Notes under the pieces: generated by a model | What the model was told of the DNA's origin: nothing | What the model saw: only the letters and a program-made list of their open reading frames with translations | Database searches by the model: none | Assembly (NCBI GenBank): GCA_030704615.1 | Contig: CM060731.1 | Span: 71,362,001-71,426,000 of the forward strand | Direction: 5' to 3' | DNA: 64,000 nt | Source: Takakia lepidozioides | Lineage: Eukaryota; Plantae; Bryophyta | Program-made: the position numbers and the translations under genes | Part shown: in pieces, positions 23,457 through 64,000 of the stretch | Layout: each line of letters opens with the position of its first letter | How positions within the stretch are numbered: position 1 is the first letter of the stretch

Positions 23457-23465
23457 CACAGCCTA
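23290..23465 (+). repeat. Post-integrase degenerate tandem array (CACAGCCTATCACAGC units)
   Basis: Also present at about 30855-31095, 36670-36910 (minus strand, ~30-bp units translating as RRDTAYHSPS) and 52380-52525. Confidence 0.85.
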
Positions 23466-27504: not shown

Positions 27505-28513
27505 TGTTAGAGGACTGTTGGGGACTTAGGACACTTATACGGGATCTGTGGGTACCCTTAATTTTTGCATAGACTGAGACCAATAGGAGCCTTAGGGGTG
27601 ACAGCAGCGCACTTTAGAGGGGGGTACACAGCCCGTCACAACCAACACAGCCCGTCACAATCCGACACAGCCGACACAGCCAGACACAGTCAACACAGCT
27701 CGTCACAGCAGACACAGCCCATCACAGCCAACACAGCCCGTCATAGCCGACACAGCCACACAGCCAGTCACAGCCCGACAAAGCCGGTCACACCCAGCCA
27801 CAGCTTGACACAGCTGTCACGACCATAGGGAACGGATAGCAGGACAGGGAACGAATGTGGGGAACAACACCTGCGAATGGAACATGTTAGTTCACGGACG
27901 ACGGTTAGAGAGGAAAACGGTTAGAAAACGGTAGGAAGATAAGCTAGGAGCAAGGACTAAAATGAGGATTATTATTTTTTGGAGCACTTCGGGGGGGAAT
28001 CACTGCTGGAAGGAGACGAAGGAGCACTTCTGGGGGAGACTTCGGACATCACTGGGGGAAAGGAGGAGAGAGCGTATCTCTGAGCAGAAAGATGGAGAGC
28101 ACAGAGTAGGAGGAGGATCTGTTGATGCTTAATGAATGCAGGCAGTAGAATTGTAATGTAGAGCAGATTCGAGACTCCATGGCTTCAGCTTGATACTTGA
28201 TAGATATTAATCTGATACACACTTCATACTCACACTGTGTAGAGAGATCTGAGTGAAGCTATGGAATGAATGGATGAGTTGATGGAATCCGATAAATTGA
28301 TGAAGCAAATTGATACTTAATTACCAGCAGTAAGGTAACTAGCTAACATGAATGCGGGAAGGAAAACAAATAGGAAACCACCCCATAATACACTAGCTGT
28401 AGGTCATGACTGATTGTTCTGAGCGGACTGAGTACTTAGAGATTTCCATCTCTTCTATCTTGGATTTTCCGCCTCGAATAGCGAAGGGATGGGTGAGTGA
28501 AAGCTGCGCGACA
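27505..28513 (+). repeat. 3' LTR of A1 (~1.0 kb)
   Basis: TGTTAGAGG...GCGCGACA, with an internal ACAGCC array at about 27625-27820. Homologous to the other family A LTRs. Confidence 0.93.
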
Positions 28514-36128: not shown

Positions 36129-36672
36129 ACTGCGTAAGTAATATTGCGAGCGTATAGTCTGTTAGTTCCTCCATAGCTTCAAAGCTATAGCATTGATGGT
36201 TTGTCCCGTCGAGACGCCCGTTACTTAGAACGACGCTGACTCTTGCGCTTAAATTCCCACCAATTTCTTGATCCCTTTTCTGGCTTTCGATTGGCTGTAA
36301 CCGCTGTGACTGGATTTTAGATTTAATTTTCTTTAGTGGACTTTCCCTGCTGGACTGTCCACTAGGATAACACATGTGACAAGAATTTCGTTTTTCTGTA
36401 CTTGTTGTTTGTTCTGTTGCCCCTTTTCCGTATTCATTAATGGGCCCGCCATTCATCTGAATCGACGTGCTAATTAGGTATTTTGACGGCCATTCTTGTC
36501 CTCTTTCTTGATGACATCTGTTCTTGCACTTCCTTCTCAGCTGTGTGTTGCGCCTTGACTTCCACGTGTCCCTTTCTAAACTGGCTTCCGTCCTTTCTTC
36601 CGCCGGCCATTTCCGTGAAGATATCTTGCGTCCACCTGTCACTGATTCTATGGATTGTGTAACCCTAGTAGG

Positions 36673-39600
36673 CTATGTTAAGCTGTGACAGACTGTGTCA
36701 TACTGTGGTACACCGTGATAGGCTGTGATACACTGTGGTAAGCTATGATAGACTGTGACACGCTGTGGTAGGTTGTGATATGCTGTGTCGCGCCTTGATG
36801 GGCTGTGATAGGCTGTGTCATGTCGTGATGGACTGTGACAGGCTGTGTTGCGCCTTGATGGGCTATGATAGGCTGTGTCGCGCCTTGATGGGCTGTGATA
36901 GGCTATGTCGCGCTTGTTCTGCCCGCCCTGGTCATATATGCTCGGCCTAGCGTCAAGTGCTCCATACTCCTTTGGTAACACTGGCGCAGCCCGTGACTGC
37001 TTTTGCGTTTCAACATACAAATCATGCTGCAATGGTTTGTCATGGATACTACTGTACCCTTTCAACTTATTGGCATTGACTCTTCCCAGCATTTCTTTGT
37101 TAATGGTTTGTAACATGGCGGTGTTATTATCATACATCTTTTGTATGACATAAGGTCCTTTCCATGGTGATTTAAGCTTAGAAGCTTAAATCTTTCCCTT
37201 CTTCTGTAGCCATAGAACCAAATCTTCCGTCTTAAAAGTCTTTAACTTGCCTTCATCAAACTGTTCCTTCCTTTTCATCTGAATTCTGGTCATATTATCA
37301 GCTGCATCAGTACGTACTTCTTCCACATGGTATAATTCATGTTTCCTGACCTTAATGGAATCTTGCAATTGCATTCTCTTTCCCCATTCCGTTCTCATGG
37401 TAGGTAACAGGAATTCCACTGGAAGTAAAGCTTCCATACCATAAACTAATTGGAATGGTGTATACTTAGTGGTGACTTTATATGAAGTCCTGTATGACCA
37501 CAAAGCTGTCAGCAGCTTTGTATCCCAATCCGTTCTGTTTGCATTGACTATCTTAGCCAAGATAGTACATAGTATTTTGTTGGTAGCCTCTGCCTGATCA
37601 ATTCCAAGGGACAGCCAAATCGTGTAAGTATGTTCTCATACAGGAACCTTGCTGTGGACTTGGCTGTGTTGTCCCTCAAAGCTTTAGCTTCCACCCACTT
37701 CGTAGTATAATCAGTGGCTGTAATTATGTACCTGTTCTATGTATTCTTGGCTGGTGGGTCAATTGGTCCAACAAAGTCTAGTCCCCATTTCTGAAATAGT
37801 TCAGTAGGCATTGTAGGATGCAAAGACATTTTCCCAGATCTCTGCAAAGGTCCGAGCCTCTGACATTCATCACAACTCTGACAATACTTGTGTACATCTT
37901 TGAACAAAGTAGGCCACCAGTAACCTGCATGTAGTATTTTCTTGCTGGTAGTCTCTTCTCCAAAATGACCTCCTGCCACTCCTTTATGAACTTCCTCCAA
38001 AACTTTATTAACTTCATGGTGGTATAAGCATCGCTTCACCACTCCATCTGGTCCAAGCTTATACATTCTGCTCCCTACCATAGTGTAAGGTAGAGCCTTG
38101 ATAGCAATTCTCTTTCTCTGCTCCTTTCCATAACTTGGTGGGCACTGACCATGAGCAAGGTAGTATCTGATTGGCCACTACCAATCTAACCAGTCATCTG
38201 CACTTCCCTGCACCTCCACTATAAATAGACTGGCATCTGGTAATTGATCATCTACTCCTGTGGCTGGTTCTCCTGTTGATAACCTTGACAAGTGATCCGC
38301 CACAAGATGCAGCCTCCCAGGCTTGTAAACAACCTCGAACTCAAACTCGTGCAAGGTTATCAACCATCTTGCTATTCTTCCGCTTATCAGAGGATTGTTT
38401 ACCAGGTATATCAGAGCCTGGTGATCCACATAGAACATAAACTTCTTGCCCAACAGGTAATGCCCGAATTTCTTCACTGCATAGATCATTGCCAATGCTT
38501 CTCTTTCCGTTGTGCTATAATTTCTTTCGGCATTGTTCATCAATCGGCTATCATAGTACACAGGTGAATCTATCCTTCTTGTAACATTTTGGGCTAACAC
38601 TGCTCCTAGTGCTTCTCCAGACGCATCACAGTGAACATGAAATATTTCCTGCCAGTGAGGATTAATCAGCACAGGTGTAGTTGTTACTGACAATGTAAGT
38701 TCCTCAAAACCCTGTTGACATTTAGGTGTCCATGCAAACACTTCATCTTTCTTCAGAAGCTTGCTCAATGGTGCTGCTATCTGTGCATACCGTCTGACAA
38801 ATTTTCTGTAATAGCTGGTTTGTCCAAGGAATCTCCTTAGACTCTTAACATTCACTGGTGGTGGAGAGGCTTTAATGGCCTCTGTCTTCCTGGGATCCAC
38901 AAGAAGTCCCCTCTTACACACAATGTGTCCCAGAAGCACCCCTGAGTTCACACAGAAAGTACATTTCTCTAGATTTAGGCCCAGACCTCTCATTCTGCAT
39001 CTGGCCAGACATAACTCCAACTTATGCAAGTGCTCATTCTTAGAGTTGTACACACTGAAATCATCCAAGAATACCTGCATGAAATCATCCAGATACTCAT
39101 GAAAAGATTCACTTATCACTCTCTGAAAGGTTGCTGGTGCATTAAAAAGTCCAAAGGGCATGACTTTGTATGTATAAGGACCCCAGTCTGTGATGAAAGC
39201 TGTCTTTCCCTGGTCTTCTTCTGCCACTTGCACTTGATTATAACCACTGAAGCCATCCATGAATGAGTACATCTCATGGCCTTCCACAATGTCCAATACT
39301 GCTTCTGTGAATGGCAAGGGAAATGGATCATTCTTCGTGCAAGCATTCAACTTCTTATAGTTCACACAAACTCTTAGTTTACCATTCTTCTTGGGAACTA
39401 TCACAATGGGTGACAACCAAGTTGTATACTCTATTGGGTATATAAACTTAGCCTCAGCCAACTTCTTGATCTCTTCTCCAACCTTCTGTGCATAGTTGGG
39501 ATTCATTTTGTACCTTGCCTGCTTGATTGGTACCGATCCTGGTTCCAGTTCAATCTTATGCTGACAGATCTCAGGTGGTATCCCTTTTAGATCCTCGTAG

Positions 39601-42600
39601 CTCCAAGCAAATACATCTCTGTATTTGATGAACAAACTCTTAGCTTCTTCAGAGAATTCTGGCTCCAAATCAGCTCCTACCTTCACCATCCTCGGTTCCT
39701 CTTTAGTTCCCACATTCACTTCCCTCACATGTTCATCAGCTGTGATTGTCCAACCAGTCACCACTTCATCCTGTAAACTCACAGTGGCTGGTTCCTCTAG
39801 GATTTCCATTTCTCCTTCTCTTTTTTCATAGAAATGTGATGGGTAACTGCTGGTTTCCTCTTCAATTGGTGTTGCTGACACTACACCACAATAGATACCT
39901 CTTAAACAACTTAAGTCTTCCAGCCGCATCTCTGCAACCTGCTCCCACTATGGGTGTGCAGCAAACAGGATAGCTTCCTGCTCCTCATCCAGTCCTCCTC
40001 TCCATTCATACTCTCTGACCCCTCGAGGTCTTCTCGTAGCAGGTAATCTACTAGATTTCTTTGTGGTAATTTGTATCTCGTGCATCCCATTATGCACGGT
40101 TAGTAACTGAGAATTCCAGTCATGGAATACCCTGGCCTGTTTCAGCCACGGACGTCCCAATAATAAGGAGTAAGCCTCCATGACTTCATCCATCTTCAAC
40201 ACAGTTACTGTGATCATAAAGATCATCTTCTGTATCTGTATCTTAACTCCTCTTATTAATCCCAATGGCTGTACACTTCTTTGATCTGCCATTGTTACTG
40301 TAAATGGGGCTGGTTTCATGTTACTTAGACCAAGCTTCTTCCTTAATTGGTCTGTCATGATATTTACTCCTGAGCCTCCATCTATCAGTACATCAGTTAG
40401 TTCTGTGCTTCCAATTCTCAATTGGATTACTAGCATAGAATCATCAAAGTCCATGACTATTTCTCGCCCTTCCGGCTTCACATTATAACTGGTCACATTG
40501 CTGTTCAGGACTGTGTTTCCTGTCTCGTGGGCAATTCGATTGATTGCTTGATACAGCATGTGTCTACAATAAGGTGCCACAGCCAATAGCTGTCCAATGG
40601 TAATCTCTGCTTTGGTCTGGCATATTACTTCAGCCAAAGTCCCTTCATTACTTTGCATGTCTGCATCTTCTTTCTTCCTTTCATCCTCACTCACTTCTTC
40701 TTCTCCATCAGAATCAGAGGAATCTGCCACAGGAATATCAGTACTCTTCTGCATTTCCCTTATGGTATCTGCCACTTCCTTGTGCAGTTCCCTCTCATCT
40801 CTCCATGCCCCATCATCTTCAGGGATATCACTGCCACCTTCATTATCATCCTCTTCCTCAACTACTGGAGGTATTAGTTTGGCTTTGCTTCTTGTTACTA
40901 TCATTGTACTTACTTATGGTACAACACATGGCCTAACCATGTGAGGTGCCACCACTGGGCCCTCATTCACAGGAGCTCTCATCTCATTCTGGTGTCTTAT
41001 CCAGAATGAACAGGCTGCCTTGCGATGTCCTGGCTGATTACAATAGTAACATAGTTCTTCACCATTGGGTCCTCGCCCTTGGTCTGTTCTTGGATTATTT
41101 CTGTAATCCTGATTCCCGGGCTGGTAATTCCCCCTTGGATTACCCTGATAGTTGCCTCTGGAATTTCCTTGGTAATTCCCTCTTGAATTACCTCTCCCTT
41201 CCATGCCATTGTTATAACCACCAGACCTACCATAGTGGTCCTGATCATTGCTTCTTCTTGGCTGGGGTTGCACCTGATGCACCCTTACTTGCCTAGGTTC
41301 TCTTGCAACTGTCCTTCTGTTGTAGTAACAATTCTCAGTAGAATGGTTATCCATTTTACAGATAGTACAGTGTTTCTCCTTCATGTGGCATTCTGTGGTG
41401 GTATGGCCTTCATTCTGGCACTTTGCACACCATACACCCTTCCTCCAATGTGTTGCAGCCTCTGTGGCATACTTCTTCAAGATTTCTTCCAATCTTTTCT
41501 CATAGTTATCCCTCTTCAACTTATCCTTTCTCTTACTCTTCCTTTTTAGTTCTTGCTCTTCTTCTTCATCTGACTCATCCTCAGAGTCCTCATCATCCCT
41601 TTTCTCTCTCCTGAGCATTCTCAATTGCTCAATTCTGTTTGCAGTTTCAAATGCCTCCTCCACTGTATTATGGGGTAACATATCCACTTTCTTTTGCAAC
41701 TGTGGTCTTAGTCCACTCACAAACCAAGTCTTCTGTAAACCTGGTGCTGGTACTGCAGCCAGCTTTTTCATCATCAATTCCATCTTTTCCATATACTCCT
41801 CAACAGTTTCATGCTTCTTTTGCTTTAACTCTTGTAAACTTCCATACACTTCATCCTCAGTTTTACTTGTCCTGAACCTATTTTGGAATGCTGTATTCAA
41901 GCCATTCCAGGTTAGGAAATGATTATCAGGGAATCTCGCATACCATTCACTTGCTTTCTTGATAAGTGAACAAGGAAACAATCTCATCTTGGCATCATTG
42001 CCATTCTCATTGTTCACTATACACATGTGCTCAAATTGGCTAATGTGTACATCGGGATCCCCTTTTCCTGAATATATTGGAAAATGTGGTTTTGCCCGTG
42101 TTGGTTGTAACGCCATCTATGGCCCTACCTTCTGCCCACTGACAGGTGCTGGCACCCTTGCTGGTGCTTGTCCTTCAGGACCTGTTGATGTTGTGGTGGA
42201 TCTTCCACCAAGTGGTGGCCCTTGAGCACTCCCTGCTACTGGCCCCAAGATATTCACAGTATTCCCAGATTTAGTTGCACTACTTCCCACACTCCCTGTC
42301 CCCCAAGAGCCAGATCCAGGCAGCCCGCCTGATTCCCCTGAGCCGACACCTTTGTTGGCCTGTGATCCAAGTGCTCCACTTGATCCAGGTCCAACGGGTT
42401 GGGATGTCCTGGTTGTAGTCTCAACCTCAGCTGTTGGGTCTACTTCTTCATACTCTTCCTCTTCCAATTTCTTCTCTCTGTTTTCATCCTCCAAGTTTTG
42501 CCCTTGGGTTTCTTCTTCACTCATGTAACTCAACTGCAATGGTGTTGGAGAGTCTAAACTCTCCGTTGGCTCTGCCACATCCTCTCCTCCTTTTTCACCT

Positions 42601-42947
42601 TCCGCTTCAGAAACTGGAGTTCCTGCTTTTGGTGTTCCATGCCAACTCTTATCAAAGATTTCTATCAAATCTTTTATCGAGGGATGTACCTTAGATCTTT
42701 CACCTCGTGATTGATCTTCTTCCCGTACCAATTCCCTTAATCTTTCTTGCAAAGAAAAAGAAGGAGTGGCATCCAACTCTAGTTCTTCCGGTATGGGTGA
42801 TGTACTCTTTGATCTTAATGGTGTGAGAGGTCGAGATGATTCCTCTATGTCTATTCCTCTCTCCCAAAGATATGGATAATTAGCTTTCAAATAGCTTTCT
42901 CTTTTTGCTGAATATCTCTGGCGTCTAGCTTCTCTTTCATCACTCAT
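36673..42947 (-). pseudogene. A3 gag-pol polyprotein, best-preserved copy
   Basis: ORFs 42117-42947, 40914-42116, 39948-40904, 38178-39929 and 37737-38081 are all in one frame, separated only by point stops. A deletion of about 100 bp in the integrase core lies near 37600. GPY motif present; no chromodomain and no second RNase H seen. Confidence 0.95.
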
Positions 42948-43025
42948 GTCCCATGTCTTTCATTTCTTTTAATGTGGCAATCACCAAAACTCTCTTCTGT
43001 AATATCTCTCGTATATGCCTGGGTT

Positions 43026-48095: not shown

Positions 48096-51000
48096 TTACT
48101 GTTTGGGATTAGCAAACCTTTGTGAGCGAGCACCCTTGTGACGTTGAGAATCTCGTGAAGGACTTCGTGTGCGAGCCCGTGTCCTGTCACTGGTTGAGGG
48201 AGATGATTGAGCACTACCTGGAAATGTCAGTCCTTCCTTTGTCTGATATCGAGGTAATCTTTCAGGCATGGGAGACCCCCGTCGCTTCTTCTTTGCCATC
48301 TGAATTGCATAGTCCTCTACCATGTCAAAAGAGTCCCCTGAACAACCAGTAGTATCAGAATCGTCTCCCCCCCTGAGGTGTTTTAACGATCGAACTCTAA
48401 CTGGAATCCTCTGGGGCATACAATGTGGTCCCACCATGTCTGGAAGTTTAATGTGTAAAACTTGTTGTAAGCGTTGAATTGCAAAATTGGTGAAGACCCT
48501 GAACTCCTTGTCTGTCCAGGTGAGTGGTGTACCAATGACTTGTGAATTGTGCAAGTTTTTCCATGCCTCATGGCCCTTAAAGAAAATATCGTCAGGCCCG
48601 AATTTCTGTGTTGACAAATTGTTCCAGGCCGCATGAAACCATGAACGAATTTGAGAATCCTTTTGCATCATAACTTTTGCCTCATATAGGTACATATGAG
48701 GTGGCACTGCAGGTAAGATCCAATGATCCCCACTTGAATAACTCAGAAAGGGCGATTGCATCTTCTGCTGTTCAATGTGATAACGTGCCAGAAAACAAGC
48801 AGTGTAGTATAGCCCGCAGCCCATGACAATACTTGCTACCTCCTTGGTCTTGGTATAAATGAATCTATGTACAACTTGGAAGACAATCAATTCCTTCAAC
48901 ATGGTACTTGCCTCATGCCAGTACCTCGCAAAGTGATGATCCTCAATGGTTCAATTGTTCGGAAGAACCTTAGTCCTAGTTGCACTGGCAGCCAAATGCG
49001 CATGATCTGGTAGTAATGTGCCAACGATTGCGGAGGACTAAATTCCTTCCAAGCCAAATCCAACACAATGGGAATTTGGTTGAATGGCATAATCATAGCC
49101 CGACTGTACTCCCGTGCAGCAGGAGTTTTAGGTGGGTTAAAAGCAGCATCCCCCCATACCTCAGGTTGTGGCGGCTGTGGTGTGGCTGTAGTAACAACAG
49201 GGTCAGCTACTGGCACAGTCACTTGTTGTGGTATTGGTAGCACTGGCTCTTGTACCACTGGCATCTCCTGCAACCCCTGCGAGGAAGACTGAAAAGCTAG
49301 AGTTCAGGCTTGTAAATAAGAAGCCATCAACTGCTCCTCAGATACAAAGACTCTCTTGTCGATATTTGAAGTGAGGTCCTCCACTTGAGTCTGCAGGCCG
49401 TCTACATCCTCCTGTAACTCCGCTATCCTACTATAGACATTGTCTATAGTAGTTGTGGCAATGTTCTGCACTTGCAGTCTGAGCTCATTCATCTCGCCTT
49501 GGGTGAGCTTTCGTGGTGCTTTGCCTTCCACCGGTCCTTGTGCTAACCAGACCTGCAGAAGGTGGTTATCCACCAAGTTGGTTGAGGTACCTCTGAGAGT
49601 CTGCTCCTCTCTAAGTTTGTACATATCTAACTGCTGCTGTAAAGCCTCCATGCGCTTCGCATGAGGTTCAACCAAACTCGCATAGGCAGCAAGCAGATTA
49701 TTGGCTTCCTTCCAAGCCTTGTTAGTGACAGAAAGTTCATTTCTATTGGCCATGACCGTTTGTTGCAATTCCAGGATGTACCTCTCTTGGTCAGCTTCAA
49801 CTTGCCTGTATTGCTTGAAAGTATTCTCATTGCGACAGATTGTACTCTTCATATCAATAATGAGTTTTGTCTGTTCGACATTATCTGCCTGTGCCTTTAT
49901 ACATCTTTCCGCTTGGCTGTTAACTTCTAATGTAGTTTGCTCAAGCGTAGTTGTGAGTGTAGCACATTGTATGGCCATCATGTCATGCACTGACTGCAAC
50001 TCCGTATGTAGTGCATTCACTTCTTGCAACTTGTTCTCATGCTTCACCTGCATTTGGTATTGCTGTTGCTTATGTGCTTCGTGCAACTGGTCCTGCGCGA
50101 GGCCTGCTTCAATCAAATGTTCCTTGGCCAACTGCAAAGCAACTGTTGTATCCTCTAACTCTTGCTGTAATTTGAGAGTGACCTCGTCATCAACCTTGTT
50201 TGCACACTCAGTGGCAAGTCGAGCCTCAAACTCCTTCCTGAGTTCCTCCCTCAAAGCTGCCAATTGGGTAGTTGGAACATGGGATTTGACATAAGTGCCC
50301 AACAAATTAAGTGTCCTGGTTATGGAACTCATAAGCATGGCCTGTTGAGGGTCATCATGGTGAGCTTGCTGCTGTTCTCCCTGATCCTCAACAGTGTGAT
50401 GCCTCACGAACCATTCAGGCCATTGCCCCACCAGATTTTCTTCCTGAACCACCTCATCCGCTAAAGGTGCTGCAATGTCTTGACATTCTACTTGTGGTAC
50501 CTCCGTCAGAGGTGTGGGTATTACAACAACAGCAGGGTTTCCCCTGGACAACCGCTGCACCTCCGGAATCACTGTTTCCCTGACCAAACCAGAATTTTCA
50601 TAGAGAAGGTCTCTCTTCTCAATTTCGGCCACGACCGGCTCTGTAGTTGGTATGTCCAACCTTTCTTCTTCCAGAGCAATTGGTGGTGATGCCACAGCAT
50701 ATACTAATTGTGGAGCCTCCAAAACAACAGAGTCAATTGGTTGTGGTGGTTGTGGTATTGAAGTGACTTCCTCTTCCCTCTCTGAAGGCCCTGCTTCCAA
50801 TAATAGCAGCTCTCTGTGCTGCTGTGCCCCTTCCTGCACAAGAGCTTGGGAAACATTATTATGCGGTTTCCGTGAAGCCAGTGGATCCGCCACTACAGTC
50901 TTTCCCCGCCTCTGTCTCTTAGACTGGGGTTGCACTGCCAGTCCACCCTCACTGTGTGAAGAGCCTTGCTCTTCAATGGCAGTGGTTTCTGCTTCAAACA

Positions 51001-51865
51001 CTCCCATCTCCTTTCTCTCCCGAGTATCAAGTATGCAAGAATCAAGAATTATTTGAGCAATGATTGGACCGGACACAATGATCGGAGACTTTGCAGCAGC
51101 GCCTTGTAACCTCTTCATCTCGTCCACCAATCCGTTGTACATTAACTCTGCCCAAGCAACATCCTCTCCCCTCAAAGCTTTCAGGATCTCCTCTGTGAAA
51201 GACCTGCTCAAATATTGTTGGTTCTGTTTCATGGCAAACAGAACGTTCAAGATTTGGCCAACCTCCCTAAGCCCTAGGTATTCGGCTTTGGTACAAGCAA
51301 AACCATGAGTTTTAAAGAAACTCCCTTGAAACAAATTCTCTATCCGCAATCTTGCCCTATGCTCGTCCACCTCCACATGTCCTGATGACAAATCAAACAG
51401 TTGCTGCAGGTACTGGGGAGTAATTTCTACATCTACTCCCCTCACCTGAGTAACTCCTGTCCGAGGCTCAAAGTTTTGGAGAAATTGTATCATGAACTGC
51501 CGATGATGCAAGGACCAGTCTTTGCGTAGCAATCCCTCCAATCGCAGCTCCTTCAGTAGCTGCACCGCCTGTGGTGCAGCGATTGTTTGCTTCTGTAAGA
51601 TTGTGGTGCTTTTCACCCTGATATCTTCCATTCTTCTCACTCTCTTCATTCTGCACAAATAGACAAGTTTTGGTTGCAACAACTGAAGAAACGCCTGCAG
51701 GGCACACAACATAAAAGTATGGTTGGCGCAGAATGAAATGGGTAAGTGCTTGTAAGCCTGCGGGGCTTACAAGTAGCGATTTAGAGAAAATGTACTCTCC
51801 GTTCGTCTGTCCTTGTGCCACTGCGTAAGTAGTAAGGCGAGCGTGTAATCTGTTATTTCTGCCAT
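48096..51865 (-). pseudogene. Family A extra 3' ORF (~1250 codons reconstructed; 802-aa open segment 49304-51712)
   Basis: ATG 51865 is in frame with 51712 (one CAA>TAA stop). The stop at 49304 is AGA in A1. One frameshift near 48950 joins 48096-48902. N-terminal QFLQNF..VRGVDVEITPQYLQQLFDL, then a long heptad-rich region. Confidence 0.8.
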
Positions 51866-52408
51866 AGCTTCAAAGCTATAGCTTTGATTGTCTCTCCTGA
51901 CGAGACGCCCGTTACTTGGAACGACGCCGACTCTTGCGCTCAAAATCCCTCCATTTTCTTGATTTCGTTTCTTGGAAATTACCCTCTGCAGATAATTCTG
52001 GCTGGTGATTGGCTGTTGGCTGTGTGATTTGTTTGTAATTTAATTTCCTCCCATGGATTTTCCACTCTGGACTGTCCACTAGGATAGCACATGTGACATG
52101 GATTTCGCTTTTCGGTACTTTTAAAGGGTTCCGTTACCCTTTCCATGTATGCATTAATGGGCCCATAATAAGTTAATATGCCGTGTAGGTACTTTGACGG
52201 CCAATTTTGTTTTTTTCCTTGATGACAGTCGCTCTTGCAATCCATATCCGGCTGTGTGTCTCGCCCTGACGTCCACGTGTCCATTTCTAAACGTGCCTCC
52301 GTCCACTTTTCCGCCGGCCACTCTCCGGATGTTAACCCACGTCCACCTGTCACTGATCCTATGGATTGTGTAACCCCAGTAAGCTGTGTTGAGCTGTGAC
52401 AGGCTGTG

Positions 52409-55400
52409 TCATACTGTGGTATGCTGTGATAGGCTGTGTTGCACTGTGGTAAGCTGTGATAGGTTGTGACACGCTGTGGTAGGTTGTGATAGGCTGTGTG
52501 ATGGGCTGTGATAGGCTGTGTCACGCTTGTACTGCCCGCCCTGGTCATATACGCTCGGCCTAACGACAAGTGCTTCATACTCCGTTGGTATCACTGGCGC
52601 AGCCCATGACTGCTTCTGCGTTTCAACATGCAAATCATGCTGCAATGGTTTGTCATGGATACCACTGTACCCCTTCAACTTATTGGCATTGACTCTTCCC
52701 AGCATCTCTTTGTTAATGGTTTGTAACATGGCGGTGTTGTTATCATACATCTTCAGTATGACATAAGGTCCTTTCCATGGTGATTTAAGTTTAGAAGCTT
52801 TAATCTTTCCCTTCTTCCGCAACCAGAGAACCAAATCTCCCGTCTTAAAAGTTTTTAATTTGCCTTCATCAAACTGTTCCTTTCTCTTCATCTGAATTCT
52901 GGTCATGTTATCAGCTGCATCAGCACGTACTTCTTCCACATGGTCAGAGTTGTGATGAATGTCAGAGGCTAGGACCTTTGCAGAGATATGGGAAGATGGC
53001 TTTGCATCCTACAATGCCTACTGAACTATTTCAGAAATGGGGACTAGACTTTGTTGGACCAATTAACCCACCAGCCAAGAATACACAGAACAGGTACATA
53101 ATTACAGCCATTGATTATACTACGAAGTGGGTGGAAGCTAAAGCTTTGAGGGACAACACAGCCAAGTCCACAGCAAGGTTCCTGTATGAGAACATACTTA
53201 CATGATTTGGCTGTCCCTTGGAATTTATCAGTGATCAGGGAAGTCACTTCATTAATGAGACCATTGAACTATTGACTAAAGAGTTCATGATTGTGCATAG
53301 GAAGAGTACAACGTATTACCCACAGGGTAATGGGCAGGCAGAGGCTACCAACAAAATACTATGTACTATCTTGGCTAAGATAGTCAATGCAAACAGAACG
53401 GATCGGGATACAAAGCTGCTGACAGCTTTGTGGTCATACAGGACTTCATATAAAGTCACCACTAAGTATACACCATTCTAATTAGTTTATGGTATGGAAG
53501 CTTTACTTCCAGTGGAATTCCTGTTACCTACCATGCGAACGGAATGGGGAAAGAGAATGGAATTGCAAGATTCAATTAAGGTCAGGAAACATGAATTATA
53601 ATACTTGTGTACATCTTTGAACAAAGTAGGCCACCAGTAACCTGCAAGTAGTATCTTCCTACTGGTAGTCTCTTCTCCAAAATGACCTCCAACCACTCCT
53701 TTATGAACTTCCTCCAAGACTTTATTTACTTCATGGTGGTACAAGCATCGTTTAAGTACTCCATCAGGTCCTAGCTTATACATTCTGCTTCCTACCATAG
53801 TATAAGGTAAAGCCTTGATAGCGATTCTCTTCCTTTGCTCCTTACCATAACTAGGTGGGCACTGACCATGAGTAAGGTAGTATTTGATTGGCCACTGCCA
53901 ATCTAACCATTCATCTGCACTTCCTTGCACCTCCATTACAAATAAACTCGCATCTGGTAACTGATCGTCTACTCCTGTGGCGGCCTCTCCTATTGTTAGT
54001 CGTGACAAATGATCTGCCACAAGATGCAAACGGCCAGGCTTGTAAACAACTTCGAACTCAAACTCGTGCAAGATTATTAACCACCTCGCTATCCTTCCAC
54101 TTATCAAAGGTTTGTTCACCAGATATATCAGAGCCTGGTGATCCACATAAAACATAAACTTTCTTCCCAATAGGTAATGCCTAAATTTCTTGACTGCATA
54201 AATCATTGCCAGTGCTTCTCTTTCAGTTGTGCTATAGTTCCTTTCAGCACTGTTCATCAACCTGCTAGCATAGTACACAGGTGAATCTAATATTTCCTGT
54301 AACATTTTGGGCTAACACCGCTCCCAACGCTTCTCTTGAGGCATCACAGTGAACATGAAATACTACATGCTAGTGAGGGTTAATCAGTACAGGTGTAGTT
54401 GTTACTGACAATGTAAGTTCCTCAAAACCCTGTTGACATTCAGCTGTCCATGCAAACACTGCATCTTTCTTCAGAAGCTTGCTCAATGGTGCTGCTATTT
54501 GTGCATACATTTTGACAAATCTTCTGTAATAACTGGTTTGCCCAAGGAATCTCCTTAGACTCTTAACATTTACTGGTGGTGGAGAGGCTTTAATGGCCTC
54601 TATCTTCCTGGGATCCACAAGAAGTCCCCTCTTACACACAATGTGTCCCAGAAGCACCCCTGAGTTCACACAGAAAATACATTTCTCTGGATTCAGGCCC
54701 AGACCTCTCATTCTGCATCTGGCCAGACATAACTCCAACTAATGCAAGTGCTCATTCTTAGAGTTGTACACACTGAAATCATCCAAGAATACCTGCATGA
54801 AATCATCCAGATACTCATGAAAAGATTCACTTATCACTCTCTGAAAGGTTGCTGGTGCATTACAAAGTCCAAAGGGCATGACTTTGTATGCATAAGCACC
54901 TTAGTCTGTGATGAAAGCTGTCTTTCCCTGGTCTGCTTCTGCCACTTGCACTTGATTATAACCACTGAAGCCATCCATGAATGAGTACATCTCATGGCCT
55001 TCCACAATGTCCAATACTGCTTCTGTGAATGGTAAGGGAAATGGATCATTCTTCGTGCAAGCATTCAACTTCTTATAGTTCACACAAACTCTTAGTTTAC
55101 CATTCTTCTTGGGAACTATCACAATGGGTGACAACCAAGTTGTATACTCTATTGGGTATATAAACTTAGCCTCAGCCAACTTCTTGATCTCTTCTCCAAC
55201 CTTTTGTGCGTAGTTGGGATTCATTCTGTACCTTGCCTGCTTGATTGGTACTGACCCCGGTTCCAGTTCAATCTTATGCTGACAGATTTCAGGTGGTATC
55301 CCTTTTAAATCCTCATAGCTCCAAGCAAATACATCTTTGTATTTGATGAACAAACTCTTAGCTTCTTCAAAGAATTCTGGCTCCAAATCAGCTCCTACCT

Positions 55401-56323
55401 TCACCATCCTCGGTTCCTCTTGAGTTCCCACATTCACTTCCCTCACTTGCTCATCAGCTGTGATTGTCCAACCAGTCACCACTTCATCCTGTAAACTCAC
55501 AGTGGCTGGTTCCTCTAGGATTTCCATTTCTCCTTCTTTTTCTTCATTGAAATGTGATGGGTAACTGCTGGTTTCCTCTTCAATCGGTGTTGTTGACACT
55601 ACACCACAGCAGATACCCCTTAAACAACTTAGGCCTTCCAGCCGCATCTCTGCAACCTGCTCCCACTCTGGGTGTGCAGCAAACAGGGGTAGCTTCCTGC
55701 TCCTCATCCAGTCCTCCTCTCCAGTCATACTCTCTGACTCCTCGAGGTCTTCTCGTAGCAGGTAATCTACTAGATTTCTTTGTGGTAATTTGTATCTCGT
55801 GCATCCCATTATGCACGGTTAGTAACTGAGAATTCCAGTCATGGAATACCCTGGCATGTTTCAGCCACGGACGTCCCAATAATAAGGGGTAAGCCTCCAT
55901 GACTTCATCCATCTTCAACACAGTTACTGTGATCATAAAGATCATCTTCTGTATCTGTTTCTTAACTCCTCTTATTAATCCCAATGGCTGTACACTTCTT
56001 TGATCTGCCATTGTTACTATAAATGGGGCTGGTTTCATGTTACTTAGACCAAGCTTCTTCCTTAATTGGTCTGTCATGATATTTACTCCTGAGCCTCCAT
56101 CTATCAGTACATCAGTTAGTTCTGTGCTTCCAATTCTCAATTGGATTACTGGCATAGAATCATCAAAGTCCATGACTGTTTCTCGCCCTTCCGGCTTCAC
56201 ATTATAACTGGTCACATTGCTGTTCAGGTCTGTGTTTCCTGTCTCCTGGGCAATTCGATTGATTGCTTGATACAGCCTGTGTTTACAATAAGGTGCCACA
56301 GCCAATAGCTGTCCAATGGTAAT
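52409..56323 (-). pseudogene. A5 pol (PR-RT-RH-INT) with inverted integrase core 52944-53600
   Basis: ORFs 55580-56323, 54901-55809, 54370-54738, 53601-54305 and 52409-52939 on the minus strand. The integrase core (WGLDF, SDQG, GQAE) is on the plus strand at 52978-53481. Confidence 0.92.
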
Positions 56324-57218
56324 TGTCCCACGGCTTTTACTCACCCATCCCTTCGCTATCCGAGGCGGGAACTCCAAGATAGAAGAGTTGGAAATCTCTA
56401 AGCACTCAACCCGCTCAGAACAATCAGTCATGACCTACAGCTAGTGTATCATGGGGGTGTTTCCTATTTGTTTTCCTTCCCGCATTCATATTAGCCAATT
56501 ACCTTACTGTTGGTATTTAAGTATCAGTTTGCTTCAGCAATCTATCGGATTCCATCAACTCATCCATTCATTCCACAGCTTCACTCAGATCTCTCTACAC
56601 AGTGTGAGTATGAAGTATGTATCAGATTAATATCTATCAAGTATCAGGCTGAAGCCATGGTATCTCTATTCTGCTCTACATTACAACTCTACTTCTTGCA
56701 TTCATCAAGTATCAACAGATCGTTCTCCTCCTACTCCGTGCTCTCCCTCTTTCTCCTCAGAGATGCGCTCTCCGCTTCATTTCCAAGTTCTGATTTCCCC
56801 CGAAGTGCCCCCACTCCTTCCCCAAGTGATTCCCCAAGAAGTGATGCTTTTCCAGTCCTCGCTCCTGGATTTATCTTCCTACCCGTTGTTCTAACCGTTT
56901 CCCTCACTAACCGTCATCCGTGAACTAACATGTTATATTCGCAGATGTTGTTCCCCACAGTCGTTCCCTATCCTGCTATCCGTTCCCTATGGTCGTGACA
57001 GCAGTGTCAAGCTGTGACTGGCTGTGTGAAACTGTGACGGACTATGACTGGCTGTGCGACTGTGTTGGACTGTGACGGGTTGTGTCGGACTGTGATTGGC
57101 TGTGCGACTGTGTTGGGCTGTGACGGGCTGTGTTGGGATGTGATTGGCTGTGCGACTGTGTCGGGCTGTGTCGGGCTGTGACAGGCTGTGTGGGACTGTG
57201 ACGGGCTGTGTCGACTGT
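56324..57218 (-). repeat. Family A LTR (A6), truncated within its ACAGCC array
   Basis: The U5 end ..GCCGTGGGACA joins directly to A5 pre-protease sequence. The middle of this LTR differs from the A5 3' LTR, so the two are not a pair. Confidence 0.88.
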
Positions 57219-58373
57219 GGATCCGCAGTCTTTTACGTTTCTACTAGGGATTCCAGAGGCAATGAGCTCCTTGTGGATGAGTCAATCGTGGACTCTTGGG
57301 ATCCTATTTGGAGACAGGTGAACGAATCCTTATAACTTCTTCTCTCCAGGAAACCTTCGACCCAAGCATTCTTCCTATGGTCGTGACAGCTGTGTCAAGC
57401 TGTGACTGGCTGTGTGAAACTGTGACCGGCTGTGACCGGCTGTGTCGGGCTGTGTCGGCTGTGCGAAGCTGTGACGGGCTGTGTTGGCTGTGCGAAGCTG
57501 TGACGGGTTGTGTTCTGAAGACACAACGGCGGTAGACAACATGTGCAACTTCTCCTGGGCCATCACCGGCTTGCTTGGCTTGTTGAAATGGTTTTTCACC
57601 TCTTGAAGAAACTGTGGTCCGAAGGATGGGTCGGCAATTCTCAACTGCTTCACAAAAGCACTCATAATTTCTTGTGGCGGTCATCTCTTGCTTGATGTGA
57701 CTCTCAACCCCCTTTGCTATCCTTTTCTCTTCAAGGGCAGAGCTGTAGTATTCTAGTTTGCCACGTTGTCCTGCATTTGCAATGTCTTGCTGCAAGAGAA
57801 TGCACGACAAATGCATTAACACAAGGGCAAGGGAAACAAACAGAAACAAAGATCTGGAAGCAGGAATATCCAAAGGCCAGATGACGGAAGATGTATCTCA
57901 CCGCGTACATATACTCCATGAAAGCCTCACGGGTCAACGAGTACCATGTTTCTGATGTCTTGGAGCTCTTGCACTTCTTGTATGTCTCTGCTGAAAGGAT
58001 GGTCTTGAAGTTCGTCAAGGGCATCTGGCTGATCCTCTGTATCCTGTACAGAGTGTGAACCGGACTCATTTCACATGCAATGTCTCCATCCCTCTGCAGA
58101 ATGATGTGTGAAAGTCAGAATGAAATTCAAGAACCGACAACAGAGGACTGGAACCAAAGAACCACGGAACCACAACAGGAACATGTAGAATGAGAAACCA
58201 TCCTATTCACATCATTCATTGCCGTCAGAAGACCCATCATGTTCCCGTCACAATCCAGCACCATCGTTCAAACACAGTAATGCCACTCTTCATCCTGTGA
58301 GTGCAGCCTCCCAATGACAACCATCCGTGCAAACAACCGGTGGTTTCCATCCCATACGTGAAACATCTTCCCT
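57219..58373. pseudogene. Fragment of an intron-containing gene with a ParB/sulfiredoxin-like DGNHR motif, split by an inversion
   Basis: Plus strand 57219-57373 (AVFYVSTRDSRG..SWDPIWRQVNES) joins in frame to minus-strand 58373-58199 (GKMFHVWDGNHRLFA..), then exons 58093-57902 and 57789-57513 with phase-0 GT-AG introns. Two stops, and probably a frameshift in the last exon. Confidence 0.65.
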
Positions 58374-58545
58374 GGGAACGGATAGCAGGACAGGGAACAA
58401 CTGTGGGGAACAACATCTGCGAATGGAACATGTTAGTTCACGGATGACGGTTAGTGAGGGAAACGGTTAGAACAACGGGTAGGAAGATAAATCCAGGAGC
58501 GAGGACTGGAAAAGGATCATTTAAGGGGGGTTCACTTCTTGGGGG
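57374..58545. repeat. Family A LTR fragment in two pieces (57374-57512 minus; 58374-58545 plus)
   Basis: The pieces are contiguous in intact LTRs (..gtcacgaccatagg|gaacggatagcagg.., compare 27815-27850). Confidence 0.85.
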
Positions 58546-60680
58546 GCCAAACCTCAGGCAATCCAGTTCTGGTATGGAATTTTGGACAAGGAGCTCAGGA
58601 GAAGGGTGCGGGATGCAACCCTGTTACAAGCAGCCCAACCCACATTAGCAGATGTATTTCTGCTGGCTGAGCGGATTGAGCTCAACATGGTGGAGGAGCG
58701 AGTTGTTACCATTGGATTTGGCAAAGACATGCCTGCACGAGGCGCAGCTGCTAGCCCACAGGCACAAGGGACTGCCCAACAGCGTGGTCAGGGGGGCAGG
58801 GTTTCCTAGCCCAAGTTCCATGGAGCTTACAGGGGACCTCAGGTGCAGAGGCCCGTGCCATCTTTTGCAGGCCAACAACAACCAGGGGTGATATGTTGGA
58901 CATGTGGAGGACCCCATGTCAAAAGAGATTGCCCAGAGAGTGGCAGAAGGCCGGCACAAGCACAGCCTGCACAGTTGCAGTGTGGGCATTGTGGCAAGTA
59001 TGGGCATGGAGATGCCCAGTGTTATGACTTGCATCCTGAGTTGTGCCCAGGCCAGTTCCAAGGGAACAATGGTGGCCGGGGGCGAGGTGGACCAGCCCAG
59101 AGAGGACGGGGTGGCCAGGCACAGGCCAAGGGCAAGCTCATCATGGCCAAGGACGCGGAGGTCAGGGTGTTGACCAAGGCATGGCCAACCGGCTTCAGCA
59201 GCTAGAGCAGATGCTCGCTGCCATGGCTACAGCTCAGGCGGTACCGGCTCCCAGGCGGGATGGTCCACCTCCTACTCCTGAGGCAGGAGATATAGGAGGC
59301 ATGGGATTCATGTGCGGAGCAGCACTACCACTAGTGCAGGTGGAGTCTGCTGCAGCTGTGACTCGAGGAACAACACGAGTTCCTGAGCCACGAGGTGCAG
59401 AGGTGGAATTGGATCCACAGCGTGGGGAGGCAAGCCGTCAGGCGAGGCTTCCTCAGTCATTCACATTGGCGGAGACTGTGTCGACGCCATCCATGGCACC
59501 TAGTTCTCGCCCGACTGTTACCGAGGCGGAGGTTACTATGCCATTGGGGAGAGCTACACGTGCAGCACTGACACCTGCTACCAAGGCTAGTGCAGCCGGT
59601 GTGTGGCTGGGGGCAGCCACCTCTGTGTGTCAAGCCCCACTGTTCTCGGCAACCATGATTGCGACGCCGGGGGTAAGACCAGCTGCAGTGTTCAGACTAG
59701 CAGCAACACTCTGTGAGAGTGAGGAGGTCACTTCATCTTCTACGGAGTTAGTGGAAGGTGTAGTGGCAGAGGGATCCTTGGATTTGAGGGTCAAGACTGC
59801 CACGACTGCGCCATGGCAAGCTGCAGCTGCCAGGTTGACGGAGCTGCCAACTAGGCCAGCCTTTGAGCGCACCATGGTGACACCTGGAGTTGTCATGTTA
59901 GACAACCAGGATGACATTTTCACTTTGAGTGGACCGGCAGGCAAGAAGTACCGGCCACTGCGGGTCTTGTTGGACTCGAGAGCTCAGCCACTAATGTTGG
60001 GCATAGCTGCTATTACAGGTTTGGGCCGCATGGAGGCGGATATGGAGCCTTGTCCTTTCCAGATACAGACATCTGTGGGAGGATCAGAGCAGGCTCGGGG
60101 CATGACACGGCGTGAGTTGGCCATTGGACTACAGCCGGATTACCCTACAGATGGCTCAATGATGCGAGCCAAGGCCATTGTGACAGACGCGGTCTCGTAC
60201 GATGTCCTGGTTGGTGGGGCAGTGTTGTACCCCATGGGCTTCACCCTGGATTTTTGGGAGGAGTCAGCTTCCTATAGGCCTGGATGGCAGTCAGGGGAGG
60301 GTCGTCATGTACAGCTCCCTGTGACATTCATTGGAGGTATTGCGGCTGCCCAGCGGGGCAAGATGCCAACACTAGCCACCTTCACAGCTGCAGCTAGTTG
60401 GCCTGGAGAGTTGCTGGAAAGCAATGCCCATGCAGAGGATGTGCCACCTCTAGCAGAGCAGGATGACATGCATGGTACGGCGGAGTTGCCCGCCATGGTT
60501 GCTCACACTCCATTGTGGGGTACGAGCAAGGATTTGCAGCAGGCTGCTGATGGATGGGTGCAACAAGCCTGGGTAGAGGCCTTTGTACCGTCAGTTGAAG
60601 AGGAGAGTGCGGTGATTGCACCAGGACCACCTCAGTTGTCGCCATTGGACACCACACCTCTTGTGTGGCAGTGCCCGAAT

Positions 60681-61635
60681 GAAGGCATATGCCTTCTGGA
60701 CTTGTTTGGCGGGATCAGCACTGGATTGGCTGCAGTGCTGCAGGCAGGTGTACGAGTTCGACGTTACCTGTATGTGTAGAGGGATGAGACCGCACAATAC
60801 GTCTCACTGTGCCATGTTGCTCAGATTGTGCAGTAGTACCCTGAGTTGTTGCCGGTGTCTGCAGTTCATGGATATCAGCAGGCCTTGCCAGCAGACATTG
60901 CGTTGCTGGGGGCGCAGGATTTGGAGCGAGTTGGCTCCATTGATCTAGTAGTGGCAGGTTGGCCCTGCCAAGGGCATTCATCAGCCGGGCATGGCAATGG
61001 ATTGCGAGACTCGAGGACGGGTCTGTTTTGGGAGATGGTGCGGATTTTGCGCCACTTGCAGCTTCATCAAGCTATATCTCTAGCATACATCTTGGAGAAT
61101 GTGCCACTGATGGGTGATTCTCGGGCCAAGGTGATGGCCAGTGTGCATCAAGTCCAGTCGTGGCTTGGGTCAACAGTGTTGCTAGATGCAGCTGCAGTAG
61201 GGTCACGGGCTCATCGTCCATGGCTATGGTGGACTAACTTGATGCCACCCGCACTGCTCAAGGATGCATTTGATGGGGTGCAGCGGCCGGCACACCTCAC
61301 CGTGGATGGCATTTTGGACACAGGGAGGCAGTCTCAATGTGTGAGTCATGCTGACCATTCGCCTTTGGCAGTGGTCAACAAGGTGGGTCAACCACGAGCA
61401 GCATTACCTACACTGCTCAGCTTCCCCGGATCCCATGCTTTTCGGGATGGTGGACCTGGCCTATTGTGGGATAGCCAATTGCAATAATTAGTGGAGCCCA
61501 ATGCTGACGAGCGCGAGCGAGCGATGGGTTTTACCACTGGTACCACGGCGGTGCCATCTCTTTCTGAGGCATCACGTCGTCAGGTGTTGGGGCAAGCAAT
61601 CGATCTCAATTGCTTGACCTGGATTATCAGCTTGG
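60681..61635 (+). pseudogene. C5 cytosine DNA methyltransferase domain (DNMT3-like) within family B pol
   Basis: Motif I LDLFGGI; II YLYV[E>stop]; III ADI; IV DLVVAGWPCQGHS (catalytic PC at 60963-60968); V DSRTGLF; VI YILENV (ENV at 61095-61103); VIII AHRPW..WTNL; IX ERERAMGF; X RRQVLGQAID. Three in-frame stops and no frameshift. Confidence 0.92.
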
Positions 61636-62096
61636 CTATGGCTGAGCAGCGCAGAGTACGGAGTACACTTCCCTTCATGGTCTCCCTACCTACCGAGACG
61701 GTACAGGCAGCGAGTGGGGGCGAGCAGGTGAGGACCACGAGGTGCGGGCCGCATCCATGGCACACGTGGGAGGTGCTCGAGGTTCAGAAGGAGTTGGCAG
61801 CCAAGGTGGCGGTGATGGATCAGGTTGGGGATTTTTCTCGGGTTGAGGAGGTACTCAAGGATGGGATGATGGGGCAGGATGAGACATTGTCACTGACAAA
61901 GGAGGCAGTGGTCACTGCTCAAGAGGTTGCAACATAGCAACCACGGGACGCGTCTTCTACCTCTAAGCCTGCTGGACTCAAGGTTGCAGTCACGGAGGAC
62001 AACTGGGAGCCTGATGTTGGACCTATAGTCACCGAAGGAGAGAGACGACGTATACGGCGGTTCTTCAGGGCTTACAGAAACTGCTTTGCCTTCAGT

Positions 62097-64000
62097 TTGA
62101 AGGACTTAGGAGCACTGAAGGGTCAAGAGATTCGCATTGAATTGGCTACTGACACGCCAATCTTTCGGAGACCCTACAGATACAGTGACATGGAGAGGTC
62201 CTTGATTCAGATGAGAACTCAGGACCTTTGGGAGGCTGGTTTGGTGGAGTTATCTGGGGGAGAGTATGCTTCAGCCACAGTGATGCCAGCCAAGAAGGAT
62301 GTCTTTGGCAATTGGACGGAGAGACGTATGTGCGGTGATTACCGGCCTGTAAATCGTCAGACCAAGTTCGATAGGTATGCCATGCCAACACCAGAGGAGA
62401 TCTTTGATGCCATTGGGCATGCCAAGGTCTTTAGCACGTTGGATTTAAGATCCGGATATCACCAGTTGCCGATCAAGGAGGCGGATAAGCAAAAGACGAC
62501 ATTATGGGGGATCAATGAGCACGGGAAGGATTGCCTATACCAGTGGCGGTTCTTACCATTTGGGCTTAAGAATGCTCCGGCAGAGTTTCAGAGAGTCATG
62601 GACAGGATTCTAGCAGGGGTGGAGTTTACTCGGTGCTACATAGATGACATCATCATCTTTAGTGCTATGGTGGAAGAGCATGAGAGACACCTTCAGGGGG
62701 TATTTGAGCGCTTGAGGGCGCACGGATTGAAGTTACATCCGGGAAAGTGCAAGTTTTTCCACAACCAGATTGAGTATTTGGGTCACATGATATATCCTGG
62801 AGGATTGGGGGTACAGCAGACTAAGGTAGAGTCCATTGCACAGGTTCCACGCCCCACGGATGTGAGCCAAGTTTGAGCTTTCATGGGGTTAGCAAACTAT
62901 TATAGACTGTTTGTTAAGGGATTAAGTGCCATTGCAAAGGCTCTAACCAAGCTGACCAAGGTGGACCAGGAGTGGCAGTGGGAAGATGAGCAAGAACAAG
63001 CTTTTCAAGAGCTCAAGGCGAGGTTGACCTCGGCACCCATCTTGAGACGACCTATCAGGGGGCGTCCTTTTCAGCTGCTTACAGATTGGAGCATGCTGGG
63101 GCTTGGAGCGGTGCTCACACAGGTGGATGATGAGGGAAGAGAGTTCGTAGTGGCTTATGCTAGCCGCTCGAACAACGTTGCAGAGTCTAAGTATAGCTCA
63201 TATGAGGGAGAATGCTTAGCTGCAGTGTGGGCCGTGGCACACTTCAGGTGCTATCTATACGGCAATCTCTTCACCCTTGTCACGGATCACCAACCACTCA
63301 AGTGGTTGATGGAGTCAGACAAGCTTACGGGGAAGCTTGCACGGTGGGCACTCATCCTTCAAGAGTATGACTTTCAGGTGGTGCATCGACCGGGTTTGGT
63401 CAATCACAATGCAGATGGGTTGAGTCGCAATCCATGCACGAGCCAACATGATGACACTGGAGCTCGGTGGCATGGTGAGACAGACGAGGAGATGGTGCCC
63501 GGATGGCATGCATCTGCATTTCTGTGTATCTTGGCAGCGGAAGGCCAGGTTGGACCTGCAACAGGGATGATTGTAGATCAAGTGTCTGAGGACCCTGAGG
63601 CCAGCAATGAGCAAGGTGACGCCAAAGATATACATGAGGATTCAGTTGTGTTGGACTACCTCCGCACTGGAGACACTGCAGCCACTGTGACTGCCAAGGA
63701 GAGGGATCGGATCCTACAACGAGCCAAGAGGTTCAAGTGGGAGGGGACACACCTGCTCCAAGTGTAGTAGGATGGTCGAGTGAGGATTGTGCCTCACCCA
63801 ACACAGCGGGCACGGTTAGTGCGGCATGCCCATGAGGAGTTGGGGCATTTTGGGGTGCGACGCACTCATAGTCTACTGCAGGGGCAGTATTGGTGGCGTG
63901 GTATGCACACAGAGGTGCAACAATTTGTGGCTAGGTGCATGGTGTGTGATAGGGTGCGTGCTTCATTCAACACCCCTACTCCACAATTGCACCCTCTTCC
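62097..64000 (+). pseudogene. Family B RT, RNase H and start of integrase
   Basis: Same frame as the protease and DNMT. YIDD at 62637-62648. Stops at 62874 and 63765-63770. Confidence 0.93.

Follow-up and report, generated by a model that had tools for sequence, protein, structure and literature searches.

Near the end of a 64,000-nucleotide stretch of Takakia lepidozioides DNA (contig CM060731.1, positions 71,362,001 to 71,426,000 of the forward strand; the window below is this whole stretch), a gypsy retrotransposon carries a cytosine DNA methyltransferase (DNMT) between its protease and its reverse transcriptase (RT). What would a retrotransposon do with such an enzyme, and how much of it would be made? 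For retrotransposon-borne cytosine methyltransferases in general the first question goes back to 2018, and the difficulty of handling the known hosts is one reason why it has lasted. A DNMT3 borne by a gypsy element is already known from Klebsormidium (PMC5890265), and on sequence comparison the window element is a land-plant branch of the Gypsy-DNMT3 lineage described there. The feature that bears on the second question is a conserved amber codon between DNMT and RT: as reconstructed, the first open reading frame (ORF1) is Gag-protease-DNMT and ends at this amber, with RT, RNase H and integrase placed beyond it.

The reading frame of the window copy

Positions 59040-63998 form one frame of 1653 codons with seven stops, at amino acids 580, 599, 816, 966, 1279, 1576 and 1577 of a translation with X at stops. 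An initial inspection of the letters without database searches, here the sequence-only reading, had put five ORFs in a common frame and a C5-methyltransferase (C5-MTase) domain between protease and RT. The translation bears out the former, and the latter is confirmed by Pfam and by relatives. In order, the stop-repaired frame matches DNA_methylase PF00145 (E 1e-11, 45.3 bits, cut-off 22), RVT_1, RT_RNaseH and Integrase_H2C2, the integrase zinc domain, all above cut-off. The protease has no Pfam match in the window and is recognised by homology alone; ORF1 of the relative L048 matches Asp_protease_2 at E 2e-4, below cut-off. The gypsy order of Gag, protease (PR), RT, RNase H (RH) and integrase (IN or INT) is present, and the features are these.

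58374..58537, minus strand: piece of an unrelated gypsy family's long repeat, adjoining the truncated Gag (93% complementary to 56824-56987)
58546..59052, plus strand: Gag fragment that keeps the C-terminal part of the capsid with two CCHC zinc knuckles, 5′-truncated, one stop (tblastn to Marchantia Mp4g09160 residues 189-357, 55%; translation)
59103..60659, plus strand: spacer, aspartic protease and linker to the DNMT (52% to Mp4g09160 residues 372-1268; alignment)
60660..61670, plus strand: DNMT3-like C5-cytosine methyltransferase domain, 337 amino acids, all motifs in order (Pfam PF00145; PDB sequence and fold matches; model; motif census)
61935..61943, plus strand: amber stop and hexamer, TAG CAA CCA (UAG-CAR-YYA), end of the Gag-protease-DNMT ORF and predicted readthrough site (kept across runs and loci)
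62040..62876, plus strand: reverse transcriptase, YIDD at 62637-62651, stop near its end at 62874-62876 (RVT_1 1.1e-30)
62877..63390, plus strand: RNase H (RT_RNaseH 1.8e-34, RT_RNaseH_2 2.2e-31)
63640..64000, plus strand: integrase start, an HHCC zinc-binding domain with two stops (63765-63770), truncated by the end of the window (Integrase_H2C2 4e-16)

This copy is dead. Its DNMT has three stops (60777, 60834 and 61485) and a substitution at one conserved motif-VIII position, the protease active-site motif at 59967-59987 is altered, and the Gag fragment at 58546-59052 is out of frame with the pol frame, in the window copy only. Four of the stops are private to it, since sister copies differ in 98-100% of depth at 60777 and 60834 and in about 100% at 63765-63770. 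Those at amino acids 816 and 1279, which lie outside the best 40 of 404 rows of sister variants, are sense residues in relatives and are classed as decay on that basis. The differences from sister copies are mostly transitions. No long terminal repeat (LTR) of this copy is found within the window, and the repeat piece at 58374..58537, which also matches four other places in the window, marks the spot where its 5′ part was lost or displaced.

A conserved amber codon

The sequence-only reading took every stop for decay, in a stop-free ancestral PR-DNMT-RT-RH-INT polyprotein with the DNMT in one Pol product with RT. The domain order stands, but the uninterrupted frame does not, as the amber at amino acid 966 is conserved across relatives; it is apparently a programmed stop rather than decay. 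From 61933 to 61943 there are no variants at a level of at least 5% in four of four runs, and the flanks are variable. A stop occupies the codon homologous to 61935-61937 in 65 of 66 related loci; among 1404 codons, the next most frequent stop position reaches 17 of 60 at most. The frame of L048 runs for 2418 codons, Gag through the end of integrase, and its single internal stop is at the amber site; L052 has one stop in about 1780 codons, at the same site. The Marchantia and Calypogeia ORFs stop 68-74 amino acids past the DNMT.

The hexamer after the stop is CAA CCA in the window copy and L009, CAG TTA in L048 and L049, and CAA TCA in L052. Its encoded amino acids vary and the CAR-YYA pattern is kept, in lineages whose synonymous sites are saturated. 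CAR-YYA is the readthrough signal of tobacco mosaic virus (TMV), with about 10% readthrough in vivo (PMC2754532, PMC2194720). The first in-frame methionine past the stop lies inside RT in the window copy, L009 and L048, which argues against reinitiation. Synthesis of RT-RH-IN by readthrough is thereby strongly implied and is considered very probable. The conserved stop would then be a constraint, the enzyme being needed in capsid-like, not polymerase-like, amounts. (One contig crosses the DNMT-RT junction in a run guessed to be RNA, and is not taken as expression.)

One of 68 linkers, that of L067, has a tyrosine codon at the stop position, which may be chance; tyrosine is the amino acid inserted at the leaky UAG of TMV (PMC2754532).

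The methyltransferase domain

A profile built from 82 family members and run against PDB sequences ranked DNMT3A highest (1.9e-27), followed by DNMT3C and DNMT3B (about 5e-24), DRM (2e-15), HhaI (1e-9) and DNMT2 (6e-6). The top Foldseek match of a structure model (pLDDT 96.7) is 6f57, DNMT3A with DNA (E 3.7e-20). The motifs, in the usual C5-MTase numbering, follow the order given in the sequence-only reading: I at 60702-60716, IV at 60957-60974, VI at 61092-61106, VIII at 61209-61223, IX at 61515-61532 and X at 61575-61592. Catalytic positions are kept in most of the 82 aligned relatives (motif-IV Cys in 78, motif-VI Glu in 80, the two motif-VIII Arg in 78 and 78). Judged by canonical motif order and the DNMT3-like fold of the model, the domain is a DNMT3-type C5-MTase, an assignment that draws on profile and fold matches. 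The ratio of nonsynonymous to synonymous substitution rates (dN/dS) is 0.09-0.20 in four unsaturated between-lineage pairs (three further pairs are saturated), a range that indicates purifying selection on the domain.

Relatives and trees

The window copy belongs to a many-copy family. In run X1, 38,308 contigs fall on 60500-64000 with all 30 bins covered, though contig depth is not copy number, and one contig of a second organism spans DNMT to integrase with 149 differences and two gaps. Protein relatives are named from Marchantia polymorpha (50-75% identity), Calypogeia, Sphagnum and Klebsormidium (KFL_009030040, 45%), to which protein search adds Closterium, Scenedesmus and Coleochaete. A metagenome scan confirmed 119 stretches, from which 80 loci were kept, 60 of them closest to Sphagnum-named proteins among the five named references compared. 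In the ESM Atlas the PF00145 cluster is dominated by Streptophyta; viral contigs gave only distant methyltransferases (30 loci, 24-46% identity over short stretches), which were not used further. The end of the protease is in frame with the start of the DNMT in 46 of 57 related loci, and the end of Gag with the start of the protease in 30 of 44 and in the intact L048.

A maximum-likelihood RT tree of 68 rows, hand-picked from 188 RTs and without curated plant gypsy clades such as Phygy, separates 54 DNMT-linked or related RTs from 14 generic gypsy RTs at 100/100. The sister group of the window element comprises L009 and the Calypogeia, Marchantia and peat-moss-like elements (100/93), and a Coleochaete transcript lies two nodes further out. 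DNMT and RT distances are correlated, with Mantel r 0.82 for the 28 elements with DNMT before RT and 0.67 for all 69. Agreement is weaker in a chlorophyte-type group (r 0.48), and over all 69 rows there are 16 conflicts between supported splits of the two trees. On this comparison the DNMT is a family trait, not a one-off capture. Checks proposed with the sequence-only reading come out in its favour on tree congruence, on selection on the DNMT and on its presence, in the same position and frame, beyond one copy. Its suggestion that an algal lineage extends to land plants is upheld by the shared lineage with the Klebsormidium elements and by the host, whose land-plant status was read from a decayed pentatricopeptide repeat (PPR) gene with an E/DYW-type tail elsewhere in the window.

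The same DNMT clade also occurs between RNase H and integrase, in a large group of proteins (P0082-P0215, e.g. P0087, Scenedesmus KAF8056149.1). The full order RT-RH-DNMT-INT is present in 33 of 212 proteins and partial in more, and the RTs concerned cluster together (100/99) within the DNMT-linked branch of the RT tree. In the available text of the literature on such elements no mention of a chlorophyte Gypsy-DNMT3 was found. P0397, whose RT lies nearest the DNMT-linked branch (98/84), combines an adenine methylase (PF05869) with a PHD finger, a hint that methyltransferase modules were exchanged within one gypsy lineage that bears PHD fingers. In NCBI and UniRef an RT-RH-IN-PHD protein of the DNMT-linked lineage, P0498, goes under the name of an uncultured cyanobacterium, a label that probably reflects plant or algal contamination of a bin.

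Ends of the relatives

The integrase of relatives ends in a PHD finger (Pfam 2.6e-10), its motif being present in 18 of the 25 loci long enough to show it. Among solved structures the closest are CHD4, PHF12, PHF21A, ATXR5 and KDM5A, several of which read unmodified H3 tails. Relatives have the TG...CA ends of DDE-integrase elements, and in 8 of the 10 distinct insertions whose two ends are present an exact 4-bp target-site duplication (TSD); L029 is exact after a 1-nt offset, L035 has one mismatch and L040 shows no duplication.

The paired LTRs that had been supposed for this element give way, in relatives with readable ends, to split direct repeats; two full identical LTRs were not seen in these. 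A repeat A of about 340 bp stands at the left, and at the right a polypurine tract (PPT) with either a repeat B of about 114 bp or B-GC-A-B, so that the layouts seen are A-internal-PPT-B and A-internal-PPT-B-GC-A-B. Complete A-coding-B-A-B is found in L046, L070 and L072/L077 (three distinct insertions), and six other complete copies carry A...B alone. Inspection of four loci by eye revealed no evident TGG-type tRNA primer site after repeat A. The B-A junction resembles an integrase circle junction and is likely the template of both ends, and A...B copies could come from recombination between two B repeats.

Proposed mechanism and its alternatives

One RNA would serve for both products. Most ribosomes would make Gag-protease-DNMT and a minority would read the amber into RT-RH-IN-PHD, a stoichiometry by which DNMT would be made at capsid-protein levels and packaged. 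The protease would release it inside the particle, where the likely active enzyme would methylate cytosines of the new cDNA ahead of integration. New copies would arrive premarked, to be tolerated as ‘self’ or to be self-limiting, and the PHD finger would guide integration to chromatin with an unmodified H3 tail. The complete proposal, of a capsid-level DNMT made via a leaky amber, packaged, cut free and methylating new cDNA, is favoured by a little over even odds; target and purpose are inferred, and confidence in the whole is therefore below that in readthrough.

Several observations weigh against it. The largest sampled family has CAA CCC (52 of the 68 linkers overall), whose last base is off consensus, with an in-frame ATG directly after, and TAA replaces TAG in 16 of 68 linkers; in such cases ribosomes could therefore reinitiate. 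In some algal relatives a single ORF without stops holds both DNMT and RT, so that a bulk enzyme ratio is not universal. The loci are not independent, the 68 linkers being 55 distinct copies and 60 of them falling in one family. At six junctions a conserved 3′ stimulatory RNA structure was not found (z +1.31, −0.81, −2.74, −1.94, −1.18 and −1.29), and a similar in-frame stop, that of Tca2, is not read through in a yeast reporter (PMC2194720). Within the peat-moss-like family dN/dS of the DNMT is 0.48-1.0, as for decaying copies. A CpG self-methylation footprint is not supported: codon-controlled CpG is 0.61 in the window copy, 0.64, 0.76, 0.73 and 0.64 in four relatives and 0.39 in L009, depletion being weaker than in the neighbouring DNMT-less gypsy (0.38). 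Active SymbioDIRS elements likewise have no extra CpG depletion (PMC5890265). In yeast the Klebsormidium enzyme did not methylate de novo, a result its authors called inconclusive (PMC5890265).

With the same architecture and readthrough, the DNMT might instead act outside the particle, in the nucleus, on integrated copies, promoters or host chromatin, for self-regulation or reshaped silencing. The option was raised in PMC5890265, and capsid-level synthesis would exceed the need of one cDNA per particle; the host already methylates transposons, and transitions predominate between the window copy and its sisters. Against this, Gag fusion and a position behind the protease favour co-assembly, by established retroelement biology, and action outside the particle is judged unlikely, if the most serious of the alternatives.

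Were the amber a true terminator, RT-RH-IN would come from a separate transcript, splicing or reinitiation, and the DNMT would be the C-terminal domain of Gag-protease. An in-frame ATG lies three codons past the stop in the largest family (L001) and ahead of RT in L052 and L062, the annotation of a Coleochaete transcript gives a complete RT-RH-IN-PHD ORF, and Tca2 has a minor junction promoter (PMC2194720). Against termination stand a frame held across the stop and CAR-YYA kept at the nucleotide level in lineages with saturated synonymous sites, and no methionine precedes RT in the window copy, L009 or L048; it has a slim chance of being right. About as slim is the prospect that the domain is a nucleic-acid-binding or structural module of the particle, or an RNA methylase. 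Gag-level amounts would suit a structural part, the lack of a CpG footprint above host background fits, and the Klebsormidium domain was inactive in yeast (PMC5890265), but the catalytic Cys, Glu and Arg are kept in 78-80 of 82 relatives and the nearest structures are DNA enzymes, with DNMT2 far down the ranking at 6e-6. That a single copy picked up a host or foreign DNMT as a passenger, by capture or insertion, as a decayed copy among nested insertions might suggest, is refuted by the liverwort, peat moss and algal relatives with the same position and frame (46 of 57 loci in frame), congruent trees and purifying selection.

A wider account, offered tentatively and with the odds somewhat against it, joins pre-methylation of cDNA to the other features of the relatives. 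An old, overlooked gypsy lineage of seed-free land plants, Marchantia included, would use a capsid-level DNMT3, made via a leaky amber, to pre-methylate its cDNA, and a PHD finger to read unmodified H3 tails. Its tRNA-independent, split-repeat ends would be regenerated from the B-GC-A junction and integrated by a DDE enzyme, and in chlorophytes the same clade would have shifted the DNMT to a place between RNase H and integrase.

Annotation and literature

Marchantia polymorpha gene models carry the whole Gag-protease-DNMT ORF (e.g. Mp4g09160), which makes the question testable in a model plant. Annotation misses the link between DNMT and RT because the stop splits them into separate predicted proteins, and standard LTR finders would probably pass over elements that lack paired LTRs. 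Element ORFs of Marchantia can be mistaken for, or miscounted as, host DNMTs. Mp4g09160, Mp8g17980, Mp2g26090, Mp6g11220, Mp8g15430 and others (P0004, P0005, P0007, P0012, P0018, P0036) are annotated as ordinary or hypothetical genes, and one Marchantia element ORF is named DNA cytosine methyltransferase in UniRef.

No land-plant report of Gypsy-DNMT3, and no mention of a readthrough stop in such elements or of the five Marchantia loci, was found in the literature, with subscription papers, the 2018 supplementary figures and the supplements of a 2026 preprint outside this scope. Marchantia is absent from the main text and three keyword-searched supplement files of PMC5890265. The ‘streptophytes’ of PMC12344493 and bioRxiv 10.64898/2026.05.21.726589 could include land plants, species being unnamed in the available text.

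Other features of the window

Beyond the element, the window holds the following.

7140-9375, plus strand: decayed PPR gene with E/DYW-type tail; repeats 53-59% to Diphasiastrum, C-terminal part 54-55% to Ginkgo and Diphasiastrum, no supported clade
17248-25941 (plus), 28403-33987 (plus), 36070-42959 (minus) and 49304-56434 (minus): several nested copies of the unrelated gypsy family
57520-58340: about 800 bp between two inverted pieces of that family's repeat, containing short ORFs in either orientation; Pfam gave nothing above cut-off

Downstream of pol the unrelated gypsy family has an extra ORF of about 820 amino acids (49304-51766), likewise without a Pfam hit above cut-off. Another ORF lies upstream of its gag (42117-42959), and its long repeats contain 10-nt tandem arrays.

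Comparison with known systems

PHD fingers in the polyprotein are also known from REM1 and Gypsy-7a_cRei of Chlamydomonas (PMC9940879, PMC6673714), where they are proposed to steer insertion; no DNMT is reported in the available text. A plant LTR classification (PMC6317226) mentions neither methyltransferase nor PHD in the text available.

The EpiLTRs of Euglena and Cymbomonas (bioRxiv 10.64898/2026.05.21.726589) are gypsy-type elements with a DNMT and a chromatin reader, as here. They have DAM, a chromodomain and a DNMT that is sister to DNMT4, whereas the present DNMT is nearest DNMT3, and neither DAM nor chromodomain has a Pfam match in the window frame or in the two ORFs of L048; ‘streptophytes (Gypsy-DNMT3)’ is a separate acquisition according to the same preprint. 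SymbioDIRS-Dnmt3 and SymbioLINE-Dnmt also bear a C5-methyltransferase, and the SymbioDIRS domains methylate CG de novo in yeast (PMC5890265), but these are independent captures by other retrotransposon classes (tyrosine recombinase and LINE) in dinoflagellate hosts.

For the stop, the closest parallel is TMV-type readthrough (PMC2754532, PMC2194720): the hexamer is the same, and an in-frame UAG followed by CAR-YYA is found in the window copy, L009, L048, L049 and L052. Murine leukemia virus, Tca2, SIRE1 and RIRE2 likewise have an in-frame stop that divides the polymerase from an abundant N-terminal product (PMC2754532, PMC2194720). Theirs lies between gag and pol, whereas here it stands past protease and DNMT and its readthrough is predicted from sequence.

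The nearest relative in architecture is KnitGypsy-Dnmt3 of Klebsormidium nitens (PMC5890265), which likewise combines gypsy domains with a DNMT3-related domain, an unrearranged C5-MTase, between protease and RT; the order of KFL_009030040 is that of the window element. Purifying selection is found in both, as are DIRS-like A-coding-B-A-B repeats, here in relatives. The integrase PHD, 4-bp TSD and TG...CA ends present in relatives here are unmentioned in the available text of that paper. Its RT falls on the same side of the 100/100 branch but is not sister of the land-plant group. Its DNMT was placed in the Pol ORF with RT and the K. nitens gene model has no stop, whereas here an amber with CAR-YYA comes between; because its DNMT does not share an ORF with RT and RNase H, the present element is classed as a variant lineage outside the Klebsormidium family. 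The host there is an alga; here it is a land plant, and the element belongs to a family of many copies.

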